From the IMG/VR virus record IMGVR_UViG_2713896781_000005: a stretch of 13,347 nt of DNA. The stretch is one strand, 5' to 3'. Source of the stretch: a virus (taxonomy: Duplodnaviria; Heunggongvirae; Uroviricota; Caudoviricetes). Under the pieces are notes generated by a model. The model was given only the letters and a program-made list of their open reading frames with translations, ran no database searches and was not told the DNA's origin. The position numbers and the translations under genes are program-made. This document shows positions 1 to 6,640 of the stretch, one piece after another. Position 1 is the first letter of the stretch. Each line of letters opens with the position of its first letter.

Positions 1-72
1 CGTTCGAAGAAATCTAACGACAAGCCTTCTAAGGGAAAGAGCTTCGCCGTACGCTTTCGCGTTATGCCCTGA
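1..72 (+). CDS. 3' end of a gene that starts upstream of the window (last 23 codons, product unknown)
   Basis: Frame 1 is open from the window edge to TGA at 70-72 (...RSKKSNDKPSKGKSFAVRFRVMP*); the stop sits inside a short hairpin ccctga-cttt-tcaggg (67-82). Too short to assign a product. Confidence 0.3.
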   Translation, partial: RSKKSNDKPSKGKSFAVRFRVMP

Positions 73-196
73 CTTTTCAGGGAAATATCCTTTCAGTAAA
101 CTGTCAGTACCGGATTCTTATCCGTGTCCGGCGCACGACCACACGTGACAGCGTGTTGGTCTCCATTTTTAACCCAGAACCTCAATGGAGGATAAA

Positions 197-406
197 ATGC
201 CAAACAAAAAAAGAAATCCGCTTATTGAAAAACAGATTGAATGCCTGGTAAATCAACTCAGGCAATCAGGGTTATTAAAAACTCATTCAGAGTTGAGGCT
301 CACAGAATCAGCATTCGACGATAAATTAAATAATGTCCTTTATAATGGCATTATTGATTTTAATCGTTCTGTTGGTCGCCGCGGCCCTGCTGGTGTTTCC
401 TTATAA
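197..406 (+). CDS. hypothetical small protein (69 aa from ATG 197; track ORF begins at 185)
   Basis: ATG at 197 is preceded by GGAGGA (187-192) with a 4-nt spacer. N-terminal part looks coding, but the 3' third has T-rich third codon positions and abuts the end of the convergent minus-strand gene at 407, so the true 3' end is uncertain. Confidence 0.4.
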   Translation: MPNKKRNPLIEKQIECLVNQLRQSGLLKTHSELRLTESAFDDKLNNVLYNGIIDFNRSVGRRGPAGVSL

Positions 407-443
407 TTACCAGTCAATCCAGAGTGGACCGTGTTCAGCGTAA
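333..443 (+). CDS. alternative-frame small hydrophobic ORF (36 aa, MSFIMALLILIVLLVAAALLVFPYNYQSIQSGPCSA; one predicted transmembrane helix)
   Basis: My own translation of the +1 frame relative to 197..406; not in the supplied ORF track. Codons in this frame are G/C-ending (ctg, gtc, gcc, gcg, gtg) as expected for enterobacterial coding DNA. Overlaps the 3' end of the minus-strand gene by 37 nt. Confidence 0.3.
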   Translation: MSFIMALLILIVLLVAAALLVFPYNYQSIQSGPCSA

Positions 444-1057
444 ATATAACTGTACACATCCAGATTATATTTGTGGTCTGTTAAGAACAGGCCGCAAATA
501 CATGCCGAAGCTTCCAGTGCAGCGGCTCTGTTACTGAATAACCATGTAGCAACATTCCAGCGTTTTTCTGCATCCCAGTCTTTATCAAGGCCTGATACCA
601 TGAAGAAACCGTTAGTGTTGCCATCAAATAATTCTGTTTCCAAATTTTTAAGCAATGCCTGATGGACTCTTGCCAGGTATTCCGCCGGAATTTCGCCACG
701 AATTCTGATGAGATTGTCATAAACAAACATGTTCCCCGCATATGGCGATTTTTCTTTCTTGTTTTTTAAACCAGCATCATGAGCAAACTGATCAATTTCT
801 TCTTCCGTTGGTTTCGTATTGATGTTTTGCGCTGTCGTTTCTGCAATTTTATTTGCCACACTCTCTGAGTCGTGTTTATTTATAGACGCACAGAAATACA
901 ATCCGGTAAACGCATCGCGCACATTACGAGCCATATTATCAGTGTCTTTTTTCGTTACCGATTCCAATTCAAGTTCGTTCAGACGATGACGAAGTGTGTG
1001 TGCTGCAATCTCCTGGATTGAAGGAGGTAAATCTTTAAATTCCATCGTCAACCTCAT
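407..1057 (-). CDS. hypothetical protein, 216 aa (more likely 212 aa from the internal ATG at 1045); distal gene of a two-gene operon
   Basis: Long ORF. Its first ATG (complement of 1055-1057) overlaps the stop of the upstream 77-aa ORF (complement of 1057-1059); the second ATG (1043-1045) has GAGG 6 nt upstream. No catalytic or DNA-binding motif that I can recognise. Confidence 0.65.
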   Translation of the reverse strand: MRLTMEFKDLPPSIQEIAAHTLRHRLNELELESVTKKDTDNMARNVRDAFTGLYFCASINKHDSESVANKIAETTAQNINTKPTEEEIDQFAHDAGLKNKKEKSPYAGNMFVYDNLIRIRGEIPAEYLARVHQALLKNLETELFDGNTNGFFMVSGLDKDWDAEKRWNVATWLFSNRAAALEASACICGLFLTDHKYNLDVYSYIYAEHGPLWIDW

Positions 1058-1290
1058 CAGTCAGTGTTTCTGGCTAACCAGCGACGCGCGCCAGCTTCAG
1101 TTTTAAACGTTTTGCTTCTGGTATACGTCATCGCGGTAAACGTGCCGTCCTGATTGGGAAACACGCCACATACCAGAGATTCGTTGTTGCCAAGATCGAT
1201 AGTATCCATGCTGACCTCATTTCCCCTTAACGCCGGGGTAGCGGAACAAAAACCTGCTGCATAGTTATTAAAGTTGAACCCTGCCGTCAT
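1057..1290 (-). CDS. hypothetical protein, 77 aa; proximal gene of the two-gene operon downstream of the repressor
   Basis: ORF with GAGG about 9 nt upstream of the ATG; stop overlaps the start of the downstream ORF. No recognisable motif. Confidence 0.6.
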   Translation of the reverse strand: MTAGFNFNNYAAGFCSATPALRGNEVSMDTIDLGNNESLVCGVFPNQDGTFTAMTYTRSKTFKTEAGARRWLARNTD

Positions 1291-1394
1291 GTTCTTACGC
1301 CTCGGGCTGGCTACTTAACCCCTGACCACTGCCTGGTAACTCGAAGTATTGCCCTGCATTCTGTGGGGCGGGGTGGGTTGGTATGAAAAGAAGG

Positions 1395-1432
1395 ATACCC
1401 ATAGGTATTTAAAAAGTAAATACCCATGGGTA
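1395..1432. promoter_or_regulatory. pair of operator-like palindromes (ATACC-CATA-GGTAT at 1395-1408; TACCCATGGGTA at 1421-1432) upstream of the leftward two-gene operon
   Basis: Inverted-repeat arms are visible directly; the second is a perfect 12-bp palindrome. Half-site GGGTAT/ATACCC recurs in the repressor/cro divergent region. Confidence 0.45.
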
Positions 1433-1474
1433 AATTTTTGCGGTGTCTTAACTGGTGACTAGTTGTTTGGTGAG

Positions 1475-1894
1475 CTATGATGCGTTTTGTGCTTTCTTTT
1501 TACGGATTTCTTCGTAGATCATATTGTAATACTGTTTTTTCTCTTCAAGAGTTTTTAATAATTTATCCGCTTCACTTTCTGGCAGTTCGTCTAAGAGATC
1601 TAAAAAAATACGTTGTCGTGGCGTTAGAACCCTTGTTTCATAACTGGAGGCTGTGTTCGTTGATGATGAAACGATACCATCCATCCATCCCCGGGGTAAC
1701 CCAAAGGACTCTTCGATAATCTCCACCATATCATCAGCGATCCGTTTTTTTCCCTTTTTCCCCTCTGGGTACAACATTCTTGATACATAAGAAGGCTCGC
1801 GCCCGATCTTTCTGGCCACGTTAACCGCTTTACCATCGCATTTCTCATCACGAATTTTGATGAGTTGCTGTCGTCTAAATTCATATTTGTCCAT
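1475..1894 (-). CDS. prophage repressor, DicA/RacR-like HTH (XRE-family) protein, 139 aa, no peptidase domain
   Basis: N-terminal helix-turn-helix segment (AVNVARKIGREPSYVSRMLYPEG); C-terminal LLDELPESEADKLL motif resembles DicA-type repressors as I recall them; divergent from a cro-like gene. No obvious Shine-Dalgarno before the ATG, so possibly leaderless. Confidence 0.75.
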   Translation of the reverse strand: MDKYEFRRQQLIKIRDEKCDGKAVNVARKIGREPSYVSRMLYPEGKKGKKRIADDMVEIIEESFGLPRGWMDGIVSSSTNTASSYETRVLTPRQRIFLDLLDELPESEADKLLKTLEEKKQYYNMIYEEIRKKKAQNAS

Positions 1895-1930
1895 AGGTAA
1901 ATAATAGATGCGATTACCGCAAGGTAAACA

Positions 1931-1980
1931 ACCTGTGGGTATTGACTTTTGTTTACCTGTGGGTATTCTTTGCTGTGTTT
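1931..1980. promoter_or_regulatory. divergent operator/promoter region: two exact 13-bp direct repeats ACCTGTGGGTATT (1931-1943, 1955-1967) flanking a -35-like TTGACT (1943-1948), with a -10-like TATTCT (1964-1969)
   Basis: Repeats seen directly; sits between the repressor start (1894) and the cro-like start (1995). The hexamer spacing is about 15 nt, so promoter assignment is approximate. Confidence 0.45.
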
Positions 1981-1994
1981 ACTAAGGAGTAGCT

Positions 1995-2276
1995 ATGGAA
2001 GAATTAAGAATATTTCTCAATTCTCTTTCGTCAGATGAACAGCGTATGTTTGCATGCGAGTGTGGTACCAGCATCGGTTATCTAAGAAAGGCATTGAGTA
2101 AAGGTCAAGTGTTAGGGGCATCGTTATGTGTCCTTATTGAGCGAGCCAGTAATGGTGAAGTTACACGTCAGCAACTAAGGCCTTTTGATTGGATGAATAT
2201 TTGGCCCGAGCTGGAAGATACCAAAACGTTAACACAACCACTTTCTAGGAGCTTGATTCATGAAAATCAAGCATGA
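1995..2276 (+). CDS. Cro-like small DNA-binding protein (YdaS family)
   Basis: AAGGAG before the ATG; first rightward gene divergent from the repressor; ERASNGEVTRQQLRPFDW segment resembles Rac YdaS as I recall it. Confidence 0.65.
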   Translation: MEELRIFLNSLSSDEQRMFACECGTSIGYLRKALSKGQVLGASLCVLIERASNGEVTRQQLRPFDWMNIWPELEDTKTLTQPLSRSLIHENQA

Positions 2277-2685
2277 ACACATCCGCATGGCGATGAATGC
2301 CTGGGCGCGTCCTGATGGCGAAAAAGTTCCAGCAGCTGGAATAACCCAGGCTTATTTTGAGTTGGGTATGACGTTCCCAGAACTGTATGACGACAGCCAT
2401 CCGGAAGCCCTGGCTCGCAATACCCAGAAAATTTTCCGCTGGGTAGAGAAAGACACCCCTGATGCTGTTGAAAAAATGCAGGCTCTGTTACCGGCGATCG
2501 AAAAGGCGATGCCGCCTTTGCTGGTGGCCCGTATGCGCAGCCACAGTTCTGAATATTACCGTGAGATCGTCGAACGGAGGGATCGGCTGGTGAAGGATGT
2601 CGATGATTTTGTTGCGTCAGCGGTTGTTTTGTATGACCAGATGAATCGCGGCGGCCCGGCAGGGAATGCTGTGGTGATGCACTAA
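2260..2685 (+). CDS. YdaT-family protein (CII-like regulator position), 141 aa
   Basis: Starts MKIKHEHI and ends ...VVMH, matching my recollection of Rac YdaT; overlaps the cro-like gene by 17 nt; AGGAG upstream. Confidence 0.6.
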   Translation: MKIKHEHIRMAMNAWARPDGEKVPAAGITQAYFELGMTFPELYDDSHPEALARNTQKIFRWVEKDTPDAVEKMQALLPAIEKAMPPLLVARMRSHSSEYYREIVERRDRLVKDVDDFVASAVVLYDQMNRGGPAGNAVVMH

Positions 2686-5631: not shown

Positions 5632-5924
5632 GGGTGAGAGTTTATATTGCCGGTCCAATGACGGGATATGAAAATTTCAACCGTGAGGCGTTTCACAAGG
5701 CGGAAGAGGAACTGAAACGGGAAGGGCATACCGTCTTAAACCCGGCAGTACTTCCGGACGGGCTGACACAGCCGCACTACATGGATATTTGCATGGCAAT
5801 GATTCGTTGCGTGGATGCGATTTACATGCTGAATGGCTGGCAGCGGTCAGCGGGCGCTAAGGCAGAGCTGGCACTGGCGGAGAAACTGGGACATGCGGTG
5901 ATTTATCAGGAGGTGGCTCAATGA
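5628..5924 (+). CDS. DUF4406-family protein (nucleoside 2-deoxyribosyltransferase-like fold family)
   Basis: VYIAGPMTGYENFNREAFHKAEEELKREGHTVLNP...NGWQRSAGAKAELALAEKLG matches the DUF4406 signature as I recall it. GTG 5628 overlaps the upstream stop (GTGA) and follows GGAGG at 5616-5620. Confidence 0.7.
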   Translation: MRVRVYIAGPMTGYENFNREAFHKAEEELKREGHTVLNPAVLPDGLTQPHYMDICMAMIRCVDAIYMLNGWQRSAGAKAELALAEKLGHAVIYQEVAQ

Positions 5925-6640
5925 GAGAGGTTAACTATGAGGCGCTTCGTGAAGCAGCAGAGAAAGCAACTAAAGGATGCTACATCGTAGGGCATACATC
6001 GGGCAATCAGCATGGGAATATAACAGGAGTTTTTTTTTGTCAAAAATGGAAAGGAGAACCCGGTGGCGTAATTGCAGAATGTCACGTTAACTGCCTGGTT
6101 GAAACAGATGCTCAGGCTTACGCAAACGCTGAATTTATTGCTGCCTTTAATCCAAATGTTGCGCTGGCACTACTGGATGAACGGGAAAGAAACCAGCAAT
6201 ACATCAAATCACGCGACCAGGAGAACGAGGAGATTGCGCTTACGGAAGGGAAGCTGCTAATCGAAAACGGCCGGCTTGTTGCCGATACGCTACGCCACTT
6301 AGCTGATAACGAAATCGACTCTGATTATTTTGCTATCACCTCAACGAATGAGAACGGTACTGAAATTGATCATGAGATGGCTATTACCGATTACGCACTG
6401 CAAGCTGCCGGAACTGTAGACGAATTGGTTGCGGCGTTGGAATCCGCAGAGAATCGCATTGCAGAACTGGAAGCACGGGAAATATCGCTCCCAGAACGTA
6501 GCAGCATGCTTCATCGAACAGATTTTCACGATGATTACCAAACGGTAATGGCATACAAAGTTTCTGAAGTCATCGCTGCAATCCGCGCCGCTGGCATTCG
6601 CATCAAAGGAGAGGAGCATGGAAATAAAACCAGAAGATGA
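5921..6640 (+). CDS. Ead/Ea22-like family protein
   Basis: N-terminus MREVNYEALREAAEKATKG... resembles prophage Ead/Ea22-like proteins; ATG overlaps the upstream stop (ATGA). Confidence 0.55.
   Translation: MREVNYEALREAAEKATKGCYIVGHTSGNQHGNITGVFFCQKWKGEPGGVIAECHVNCLVETDAQAYANAEFIAAFNPNVALALLDERERNQQYIKSRDQENEEIALTEGKLLIENGRLVADTLRHLADNEIDSDYFAITSTNENGTEIDHEMAITDYALQAAGTVDELVAALESAENRIAELEAREISLPERSSMLHRTDFHDDYQTVMAYKVSEVIAAIRAAGIRIKGEEHGNKTRR

Follow-up and report, generated by a model that had tools for sequence, protein, structure and literature searches.

Two small minus-strand open reading frames (ORFs) lie directly downstream of a prophage repressor gene, at positions 407-1474 of a 13,347-nt stretch of Caudoviricetes DNA (IMG/VR record IMGVR_UViG_2713896781_000005; the whole stretch is here called the window), and the question is what they encode, what controls them and whether they form a unit of their own. 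The initial annotation had described them as a self-contained, translationally coupled two-gene operon under repressor control and as a candidate for defence, anti-defence or host takeover. Here it is proposed, with a probability of about 0.72, that the interval is the promoter-proximal end of an early-left, PL-type operon of the dicBF type in a Qin/Rac-like lambdoid prophage of E. coli, with a control region and a cargo cassette whose roles are proposed along with it.

Source prophage and immunity region

A lambdoid prophage of EHEC O145:H28 (E. coli O145:H28 RM12761) matches the window at 100% DNA identity. Its annotated context is int-xis-exonuclease-DUF1482-dicB ... DUF1391-repressor, followed on the other side of the switch by cro-YdaT-..., and besides the operon it retains int, xis, replication, Q and lysis genes. 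The two ORFs exist as first annotated (1057..1290, 77 aa; 407..1057, 216 aa), and their position directly downstream of the repressor is likewise correct. The repressor gene diverges from a Cro/YdaS-like gene:

1475..1894, minus strand: immunity repressor, 139 aa, HTH (ORF; phrog_5736 'transcriptional regulator', E 6e-70)
1995..2276, plus strand: Cro/YdaS-like gene, 93 aa (phrog_35, E 5e-23)

The repressor is labelled a hypothetical protein by PGAP and has no S24 peptidase domain. Its likeness to DicA is confined to the C-terminal 46 aa (33% identity, BLASTP), and DicA itself was ruled out by the NCBIfam DicA model (24.5 bits vs a cut-off of 101); judged by sequence, this repressor is of a different immunity type on the same kind of operon as dicBF. 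The 93-aa Cro/YdaS-like protein scores 25.8 bits with Pfam YdaS_toxin, under the cut-off of 30. No experiment on the 139-aa repressor, its promoter or its transcript was found in the searched literature.

Gene boundaries of the repressor-proximal ORFs

Comparison with related loci places two genes in the interval:

1057..1209, minus strand: YdfA/YdaF-family gene, DUF1391, 50 aa (Pfam PF07151; conserved start and Shine-Dalgarno)
407..1045, minus strand: gene for a 212-aa protein, phrog_2151, 'Ybl81' in some records (conserved start at 1045)

No motif had been recognised in either protein, which holds for the 216-aa ORF (no Pfam match) and fails for the 77-aa ORF, whose residues 29-75 match PF07151 over profile positions 1-47 of 48 with 100.3 bits vs a cut-off of 27.3 (E 4.6e-29). 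Of 77 related loci, about half lack the 27-codon extension of the 77-aa ORF or interrupt it with a stop, and only about half of the DUF1391 loci have an open upstream extension with an ATG; the MDTIDL ATG at 1209 and its GAGG Shine-Dalgarno are kept in nearly all related loci (one has a divergent upstream sequence), and this start is also chosen by PGAP (50 aa) and in K-12 ydfA. The 77-aa ORF reaching to 1290 is, by this comparison, an over-extended call of the 50-aa gene, whose protein is 90% identical to K-12 YdfA and 86% to YdaF. Similarly, several loci have no MRLT extension of the 216-aa ORF, and MEFKDLP (ATG at 1045) is the start of nearly all homologues. Since the longest-ORF extensions are not conserved and the inner starts are, the real genes run from 1209 to 1057 (50 aa) and from 1045 to 407 (212 aa), separated by 11 nt and without overlap. 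The start-on-stop overlap that had been read as a sign of coupling exists for the longest-ORF starts only; the Shine-Dalgarno of the 212-aa gene begins at the stop codon of the first gene (TGA-TGAGGttgacgATG), and translational coupling is possible.

The DUF1391 sequence is present in 4133 of 5426 complete E. coli genomes (~76%). A search of its profile against PDB sequences gave nothing below E 0.4, and the literature search on DUF1391 found no functional report.

Putative operators and promoters

The repeats that link this interval to the repressor, and the promoters associated with them, are arranged as follows:

1421..1432: operator-like palindrome OL-a, TACCCATGGGTA, directly upstream of the leftward -35
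1396..1407: operator-like palindrome OL-b, TACCCATAGGTA, with a 2-nt overlap with the leftward -10
1392..1420, minus strand: predicted PL-like sigma-70 promoter, -35 TTTACT (1420-1415), 17-nt spacer, -10 TATCCT (1397-1392), read from sequence
1915..1965: OR-like region with three operator copies (1915-1926; 1930-1941, one mismatch; 1954-1965)
1942-1969, plus strand: PR, TTGACT-16-TATTCT, overlapped by operator copies
1928-1901, minus strand: PRM-like promoter, TTTACC-16-TATTAT, overlapped by operator copies

OL-a and OL-b lie 106-142 nt upstream of position 1290 and, as the initial annotation observed, match repeats between repressor and cro; their TACC-N4-GGTA core recurs there at 1915-1926 and 1954-1965. 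The predicted leftward promoter agrees with the consensus at 8/12 positions and was missed by the promoter scan because of the 9/12 threshold; its layout parallels that of PR, where AACCTGTGGGTA, TTGACT, 16 nt and TATTCT follow one another at 1930-1969. The motif TACC-N4-GGTA has five exact matches in the 13.3 kb vs 0.07 expected (five or more in 0/200 shuffles), and four of the copies bracket the PL-like promoter together with PR/PRM. Among related loci, 9/9 with the same repressor have the motif ahead of DUF1391, against 0/~60 of those with other repressors; in K-12 Qin, both corresponding spacers, upstream of ydfA and between repressor and cro, contain a palindrome particular to that prophage. 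Because the motif co-varies with the repressor type, repressor control of the operon is well supported: together with the shared motif and the PR-like layout, this distribution upholds the control first suggested, and the early-left genes are very probably controlled by the adjoining immunity repressor, which would bind TACC-N4-GGTA. From the end of the -10 in the repressor promoter to the repressor ATG there are 7 nt, implying a leaderless repressor mRNA; the cI mRNA of lambda is likewise leaderless.

Continuation of the operon to dicF and dicB

The description as a self-contained two-gene operon did not survive the extension of the analysis to the left, where the two genes prove to be the 5' part of a dicBF-type operon running on to dicF and dicB. 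The dicF gene (L001 13807-13858, minus strand; 71.5 bits vs a gathering score of 48) is on the same strand just outside the window, as is dicB (L001 13444-13632, minus strand), about 140 and 370 nt past the left edge, respectively. Between them and the 212-aa gene are:

197..406, plus strand: orf69, a convergent 69-aa gene, phrog_4274, whose stop codon abuts that of the 212-aa gene (Shine-Dalgarno GGAGG at 187-191)
1..196: non-coding block, the right-hand part of ~330 nt between orf69 and dicF, which is the dicF leader on the minus strand and the orf69 upstream region on the plus strand

When the leader block is aligned with the K-12 ydfC-dicF spacer and with PPompW, mean column identity over the three sequences is 91%. 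The block is common to all types of the cassette described below and also occurs in Salmonella loci without dicF; DicF was not found next to the Salmonella gene pairs at E <= 0.01. No minus-strand terminator-like site was predicted between 1392 and dicF, consistent with a single polycistronic transcript through dicF and dicB. In K-12, DicA represses the promoter of the polycistronic dicBF operon, in which ydfABC have no known function (PMC5069750). Host takeover, one of the roles first put forward, is right for the operon as a whole, since DicF and DicB, with which it ends, inhibit cell division.

The 212-aa protein

The 212-aa protein (net charge -9.9) has a helical N-domain (residues ~1-75), an acidic linker and a conserved alpha/beta C-domain (~100-200), with dN/dS of 0.42-0.75 for the N-domain and 0.16-0.22 for the C-domain. 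Out of 1.84 billion representatives, an exhaustive profile search picked 55 proteins. Those with the full-length architecture form essentially a single cluster, and distant relatives of the C-domain are limited to P0144, which bears an inserted Xre-type HTH, and P0153. Scans of the 216-aa ORF and of orf69 with Pfam, NCBIfam and PADLOC gave no match, PADLOC-DB v2 giving no family at E <= 0.1 for these two, the 77-aa ORF or the repressor, and the PHROGs matches of the 216-aa ORF and orf69 are to 'unknown function' families only. Profiles of the 212-aa family and of orf69 found nothing below E 0.4 among PDB sequences, and literature searches with the protein accessions and Ybl81 found nothing functional.

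Structural models are only moderately confident (pLDDT 66 for the whole 212-aa protein with AlphaFold, and 73), and two fold searches gave no match that assigns a function. The best hit of the whole-protein model with Foldseek against BFVD (E 0.016) was to Prp/YsxB-like cysteine proteases, and this assignment was rejected because the cysteines are not kept in P0144 or P0153. An enlarged YdfB or YdaG was rejected by comparison with both.

The convergent partner and a polymorphic cassette

The comparison of loci shows that the conserved partner of the 212-aa C-domain is the convergent orf69 and not the neighbouring DUF1391 gene. The orf69 gene accompanies the C-domain in 71/73 evaluable loci and has a dN/dS of 0.19-0.27. 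In Salmonella prophages with a P2-type switch, that is, in a different immunity context, orf69 copies of 42-52% identity adjoin the distant C-domain homologues P0153 and P0144 (30-33% identical), still convergent and abutting or overlapping, and a Salmonella variant of the C-domain without the N-domain is still paired with orf69. The orf69 product has no hydrophobic segment. No sigma-70 promoter was placed for orf69, the sole candidate (169-198) overlapping its start. As a separate and suggestive observation, the region upstream of orf69 folds with z = -2.4, its Shine-Dalgarno pairing with an upstream CUCCAU.

The slot after DUF1391 is polymorphic, and the locus comparison agrees with its earlier description as a variable island. 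Many occupants share the helical N-domain, the alignment of which is too variable to be used for a locus search. Five C-terminal types are found, each with its own small convergent ORF, and across 141 unique genes the C-terminal type co-varies with the type of the opposite-strand small gene (unique loci per pairing: X1-Y1 35/42, X2-Y2 31/32, X4-Y4 11/12, X7-Y5 6/6, X5-Y6 5/8), a co-variation that could be simple block inheritance; most of the loci come from near-identical E. coli isolates. Two of the other small convergent genes have dN/dS of 0.26-0.34; homology of the small ORFs of other types to orf69 was rejected at 16-29% identity. The cassette borders match conserved junctions (...TGATGAGGTTGACGATGGAA at one border, ...ATGGAGGATAAAATG at the opposite one), and the flanks are the same for all types. 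A viable phage, mEp460, has the order repressor-DUF1391-121-aa N-domain gene-convergent 66-aa gene-dicB, its cassette being of the X2/Y2 type.

Alternative explanations

The DUF1391 gene and its 212-aa neighbour could still be a coupled module working as a pair in defence, anti-defence or a toxin-antitoxin-like role. They are adjacent and co-directional, 68/77 C-domain loci have DUF1391 immediately upstream across an identical 11-nt junction, and the Shine-Dalgarno of the second gene overlaps the stop codon of the first. However, the overlap between them rests on non-conserved start codons, and the co-occurrence check on which the idea of a unit depended shows no obligate pair: the whole block is present in 568 of the 5426 complete E. 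coli genomes, far fewer than have DUF1391, which the 212-aa gene accompanies in ~10%. In K-12 Qin, in Rac and in REL606, DUF1391 precedes unrelated genes; ydfB or ydfC separates it from the 212-aa gene in five of the loci and it is absent in three. The operon also runs on to dicF and dicB, the K-12 ydfA-containing operon (ydfABC and ydfD) is not toxic after deletion of dicF and dicB (PMC5069750), and PADLOC gave no match; such a module is the least probable of the readings weighed here. With regard to a type II toxin-antitoxin system, Pfam and NCBIfam matched no toxin or antitoxin family, and the pair that is conserved, the 212-aa gene and orf69, is convergent and not co-directional. Only slightly better placed, and very unlikely, is a housekeeping early regulator of N-less lambdoid phages, with DUF1391, the 212-aa protein or both as an N, CIII or Kil analogue for delayed-early expression or the lysis-lysogeny decision. 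Strong purifying selection on DUF1391 (dN/dS 0.11-0.16), the HTH inserted in the distant 212-aa relative P0144 and the lack of an annotated N-like gene in the prophage region examined would fit it. Pfam, PHROGs and NCBIfam nonetheless gave no N, CIII or Kil family match, no nut site (boxA/boxB) was recognised by eye, the DUF1391 protein is neutral (net charge -0.5) and not arginine-rich as a lambda N-type antiterminator would be, and the 212-aa gene, present in only ~10% of genomes and replaced elsewhere by unrelated C-termini, is a misfit with a core function.

The remaining alternative concerns the 212-aa gene and orf69, which may be functionally unrelated: orf69 would be a lysogen-expressed moron like sieB, the 212-aa gene a dispensable early gene, and their linkage that of one DNA block inherited between conserved recombination junctions. 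Rac sieB is convergent with ydaF at the same place, the conserved junction sequences at the cassette borders are typical of lambdoid mosaicism, and all cassette types have the same flanks. Against mere neighbourhood stand the Salmonella loci, where the pair is kept convergent at 30-33% (C-domain) and 42-52% (orf69) identity in another immunity context, and even in the variant without the N-domain, as well as the five C-terminal types with a small convergent ORF each. On balance, unrelated neighbours are somewhat unlikely.

Comparison with known systems

The nearest known system is the dicBF operon of K-12 Qin (dicA, then ydfA-ydfB-ydfC-dicF-dicB-ydfD), which has the same order and strands. In both, a ydfA-family gene adjoins a repressor that diverges from a cro/dicC-like gene, a variable middle is followed by the conserved non-coding leader, dicF, dicB and a ydfD-like gene, and immunity-specific palindromes lie upstream of the first gene and in the repressor-cro spacer. 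They differ in the repressor and its palindrome (DicA and the Qin palindrome there, a non-DicA repressor and TACC-N4-GGTA here) and in the middle genes (ydfB and ydfC there, the 212-aa gene and the convergent 69-aa gene here).

The racR-ydaG-ydaF/sieB region of Rac also has a DUF1391 gene (ydaF, 86% identical) in a repressor-proximal leftward operon, met at its 3' end by that of an opposite-strand gene (sieB). However, Rac has the order ydaG then ydaF, its ydaG is unrelated to the 212-aa protein, and kilR and kilS take the place of dicB and dicF. SieB is a membrane protein, and by that description orf69, with no Pfam match and no hydrophobic segment, would differ from it. The Rac operon is derepressed when racR expression drops, ydaF and ydaG rising ~40-fold (PMC6765115, PMC11014345). 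As in the lambda immunity region, operators lie here on both sides of the repressor gene and overlap the -35 and -10 of the divergent early promoters, whereas lambda has an S24 peptidase in its repressor, three left operators (two here), an N gene and a nut site; the first leftward gene here is DUF1391.

In pore-forming colicin operons the immunity gene is convergent to the colicin gene. By analogy and not homology, the locus resembles them in having a repressed modular gene with a conserved N-part and an exchangeable C-domain, and a small opposite-strand gene at its 3' end that co-varies with that domain; it differs in that there is no similarity of sequence or fold, neither a secretion nor a lysis function, and no segment of membrane type. 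BstA/aba (PMC8585504) is also an accessory locus next to a prophage repressor, and cognate self-protection is one possible logic here, but there is no KilA-N domain, other BstA feature or PADLOC match, and the large gene here belongs to the repressed early strand, instead of being expressed during lysogeny.

Proposed model and significance

In the dicBF-type reading preferred here, the 139-aa repressor of a lysogen would sit on TACC-N4-GGTA operators that flank the -35 and overlap the -10 of the leftward promoter (1420-1392), and the same operators would cover the PR/PRM region, so that the operon would be silent. Derepression would give one leftward transcript carrying the 50-aa DUF1391 gene (1209 to 1057), after 11 nt the 212-aa gene (1045 to 407), then the antisense of orf69 (197-406) and the ~330-nt conserved leader, followed by the cell-division inhibitors dicF and dicB and by the ydfD-like gene, exonuclease, xis and int. 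The 212-aa protein may be an early-lytic accessory factor, and orf69 its separately transcribed cognate partner, whose expression PL read-through would oppose; as an effector and its cognate partner, the two proteins might interact. A wider form of this idea is doubtful: an undescribed polymorphic cassette of dicBF-type early-left operons and Salmonella prophages with a P2-type switch, in which an effector with a 'MEFKDLP' N-domain and an exchangeable C-domain would be matched by a type-specific opposite-strand neutraliser (or defence by self-immunity), the small gene being driven from the antisense side of the dicF leader and the balance switched by PL on induction. It would comprise at least five types, the window holding type 1 (212 aa and orf69).

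The locus mostly resolves into known biology, as another immunity type of the dicBF/Rac-like early-left operon, which is widespread in E. coli, with several copies in EHEC, and two starts over-extended by longest-ORF calling are now corrected. The uncharacterised 139-aa repressor, which occurs in O145, O157 and O103 EHEC prophages, now has an operator consensus (TACC-N4-GGTA) and a promoter layout, both testable. DicF and DicB affect cell division, metabolism and phage resistance; if the effector and cognate partner are real, they would add an accessory module of a new kind to the part of the prophage from which these two are made.

Gene content and boundaries

The two minus-strand ORFs of 77 and 216 aa reported in the initial annotation were present as described; their start-on-stop overlap does not hold, as it depends on starts that are not conserved among 77 related loci. 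In about half of these loci the first ORF's 27-codon extension is interrupted by a stop or has no ATG, and the upstream ATG of the second ORF is missing from several. The MDTIDL start at 1209, also used by K-12 ydfA and PGAP, is kept with its GAGG Shine-Dalgarno sequence in nearly all of the 77 (one sequence is divergent), and MEFKDLP is the beginning of nearly all homologues of the second ORF. Because the starts at 1209 and 1045 are conserved across loci, unlike those of the longer ORFs, the genes proper are those listed here, having a spacing of 11 nt, with the Shine-Dalgarno sequence of gene 2 beginning at the gene 1 stop codon.

197-406 (+), orf69, convergent 69-aa gene
1045 to 407 (-), gene 2, 212-aa protein
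1209 to 1057 (-), gene 1, DUF1391 protein
1475-1894 (-), repressor, 139-aa HTH protein

Both proteins had been said to lack a recognizable motif, which is untrue for gene 1, matching Pfam DUF1391 at 100.3 bits (cut-off 27.3). Its product has 90% identity to YdfA (Qin) and 86% to YdaF (Rac), and is a member of a known, functionally uncharacterised family under purifying selection (dN/dS 0.11-0.16). In phage records ON470595, ON470580, PV340562 and others, the gene is labelled 'head-DNA stabilization protein D'; this looks like an annotation error, the only support seen being a head decoration protein in the PDB, matched over 22 residues without significance (E 0.41).

Gene 2 had zero matches in Pfam, NCBIfam and PADLOC; it was assigned to phrog_2151 (unknown function). 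Its homologues are nearly all from Escherichia (204-214 aa, 'Ybl81' on some records). When 1.84 billion cluster representatives were searched exhaustively with a profile, 55 proteins were returned. Many short proteins whose C-termini are unrelated have the N-terminal 55-90 residues (N-domain), and the C-domain reappears only in P0144 (286 aa), which has an inserted Xre-type HTH, and P0153 (220 aa). In the AlphaFold model the N-domain is helical and the C-domain has the order beta-beta-alpha-beta-beta-alpha-beta; pLDDT is 66 over the full length and 73 for the C-domain modelled alone. With a net charge of -9.9 the protein is acidic; it lacks a hydrophobic segment, and its dN/dS is 0.16-0.22 in the C-domain and 0.42-0.75 in the N-domain.

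Operators and promoters

The palindromes noted upstream of the first ORF were located at 1396-1407 and 1421-1432. Their TACC-N4-GGTA core has five copies in the window against 0.07 expected, no shuffle reaching five, and four of the five lie in the two regulatory spacers, in agreement with the recurrence of half-sites claimed between repressor and cro; a sixth copy, with one mismatch, is at 1930-1941. The predicted leftward promoter and PR have the same layout, one operator abutting the -35 and another overlapping the -10.

1432-1392 (-), PL-like promoter, TACCCATGGGTA-TTTACT-TTTTAAA-TACCTATGGG-TATCCT
1930-1969 (+), PR, AACCTGTGGGTA-TTGACT-TTTGTT-TACCTGTGGG-TATTCT
1894-1928 (-), PRM-like promoter, TTTACC-16-TATTAT

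Upstream of DUF1391, the motif was found in 9/9 loci with this repressor, a set including the window itself and its source locus, against 0 of about 60 with other repressors. The two equivalent spacers of K-12 Qin share a different palindrome, TGTTAGTCAT..CTAACA, and the likeness of the repressor to DicA is confined to a C-terminal stretch. Since motif counts, PR-like layout, co-variation with repressor type and the Qin parallel agree, the proposed control of the early-left operon by the immunity repressor is well supported, and the repressor would be expected to bind these sites.

The -35 of the PRM-like promoter overlaps the operator at 1915-1926, and its -10 ends at 1901, with the repressor ATG 7 nt further on (1894), which implies a leaderless mRNA; the lambda cI mRNA is leaderless. 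The two left operators jointly make up a 16-bp AT-rich hairpin (1396-1432, minus strand) with TCCTTCTTTT after it, shortly past the repressor stop codon (1475); the site resembles a terminator and could keep repressor transcripts out of the early-left operon.

Relation to dicBF-type operons

Rfam places DicF about 140 nt past the left window edge, on the same strand (71.5 bits vs 48), with dicB next. The gene order corresponds to that of K-12 Qin (dicA, then ydfA-ydfB-ydfC-dicF-dicB-ydfD), and the operon resembles that of Rac (racR, then ydaG-ydaF, with sieB on the opposite strand). The plaque-forming phage mEp460 has an equal layout with a cassette of another type. The orf69-dicF stretch has 91% mean column identity to the K-12 ydfC-dicF leader in a three-way alignment, and no terminator-like sites were predicted on the minus strand from the promoter to dicF. 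The Qin dicBF operon is polycistronic and under DicA repression, toxicity being assigned to dicF and dicB, with ydfA, ydfB and ydfC of unknown function (PMC5069750); in the Rac prophage, a drop in racR expression goes with a rise of about 40-fold in ydaF and ydaG (PMC6765115, PMC11014345). The feature is real, and for the most part it exemplifies an operon type already known, here with a new immunity specificity.

About 330 nt of non-coding DNA between orf69 and dicF form a conserved block (window 1-196 plus 13859-14000 of the source locus L001, where position 14001 is window position 1). It is common to all cassette types, and is present too in Salmonella loci without dicF. Within it, the stretches CACAACCGGAAGCGCAC / GTGCGCTTTCGTGTTGTG and GCCGGA..TCCGGC are complementary and conserved. 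Any transcript running rightward from a start left of dicF would include the full anti-DicF sequence. Outside the window, between dicB and dicF, a promoter-like TTAACA-16-GAGAAT (L001 13697-13724, plus strand) is directed at orf69, antisense to dicF.

Prophage setting

Window 1-2300 is matched at 100% identity in the E. coli O145:H28 RM12761 chromosome and in many other EHEC genomes. In RM12761 this region is a lambdoid prophage adjoining rspB. Its genes run int, xis, exonuclease, DUF1482 and dicB; beyond a gap come hypothetical genes of 69 aa (opposite strand) and 212 aa, then DUF1391 and the repressor, a hypothetical gene of 139 aa. Divergent from the latter are a transcriptional regulator, a YdaT-family gene, replication genes, Q, a methyltransferase and lysis genes.

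Other features include an ead/Ea22-like gene (5921-6640, plus strand), for which PGAP flags a frameshift in the identical RM12761 sequence, and sok antisense RNA (8446-8621, plus strand, 118.5 bits) beside the annotated hokD toxin gene (~8615-8770), a type I toxin-antitoxin locus within the prophage, broken by a masked N run (8635-8650). A second N run (9618-9667) lies within the DUF968-family gene region. Downstream of the DNA methyltransferase gene, at 13048-13318, sRNA STnc100 (plus strand, 175.6 bits) is directly followed by AgvB, an anti-GcvB sRNA (minus strand, 92.5 bits). The tRNA calls disagree: Rfam gave a weak partial match at 12869-12928 (37.3 bits, model positions 7-64), ARAGORN found zero tRNAs over the whole window, and PGAP places tRNA-Met elsewhere, at L001 26991-27061 (window 12991-13061).

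Co-occurrence and the convergent partner

DUF1391 is directly adjacent in 68 of 77 C-domain loci (ydfB and/or ydfC between in 5, absent in 3), which have at least six repressor types, but DNA matching the DUF1391 end is in 4133 of 5426 complete E. coli genomes and the whole block with the 212-aa and 69-aa genes in 568. The closer linkage is to orf69 (dN/dS 0.19-0.27), present in 71 of 73 evaluable C-domain loci with its stop abutting that of the 212-aa gene. Neither orf69 nor the C-domain matched any of 50,697 phage genome records. No promoter could be placed for orf69. In a fold of modest stability (z = -2.4), its Shine-Dalgarno sequence can base-pair to CUCCAU further upstream.

The pairing also occurs beside distant C-domain homologues in Salmonella prophages with an Int-C-Cox (P2-type) switch (identities of 30-33% for the C-domain, 42-52% for the small protein). 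In a further Salmonella variant (L089-L091) the C-domain is a stand-alone 138-aa ORF, missed by the gene caller, with orf69 convergent to it. Just beyond is a separate 119-aa N-domain gene with its own convergent 64-aa ORF; the same 'YQR(M/T)RLTME' start region stands ahead of this N-domain gene and of the C-domain ORF, an arrangement that suggests recombination at the start-codon junction. In the Salmonella prophages L084, L087 and L092, the distant relative P0144 (286-294 aa) lies directly 3' of cox in the P2-type switch, its HTH (36-38% identity to the DicA N-terminus) being inserted between N-terminal segment and C-domain.

Across 141 unique N-domain genes, the C-terminal type (X) predicts the type of small convergent ORF (Y); the window carries X1/Y1.

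Pairing of C-terminal and small-ORF types (unique loci)
X1 (212 aa), Y1 (orf69): 35/42
X2 (121 aa), Y2 (66 aa): 31/32
X4 (112 aa), Y4 (64 aa): 11/12
X7 (135 aa), Y5 (77 aa): 6/6
X5 (129 aa), Y6 (105 aa): 5/8

Two more C-terminal types have only dubious antisense ORFs. Y2 and Y4 have dN/dS of 0.26-0.34, from few substitutions. All types have common flanks, with a junction ...TGATGAGGTTGACGATGGAA at the N-domain gene start; at the small-gene start, the flank is the dicF leader in antisense and frequently ends in ...ATGGAGGATAAAATG. Because neighbouring DNA is co-inherited, X/Y co-variation by itself is no proof that the two genes work as a pair; how deeply the type-1 pair is conserved argues for this more strongly.

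What the analysis established is gene content and gene boundaries, the operator statistics, the linkage and the purifying selection. In the proposed mechanism, the repressor would keep the leftward promoter shut, and induction would give a single transcript for DUF1391, the 212-aa protein and then DicF and DicB, running antisense across orf69. The latter would come from its own rightward transcript, and the 212-aa protein and orf69 may act on one another or on a shared target. It is this conserved convergent pair in a polymorphic slot that is worth pursuing.
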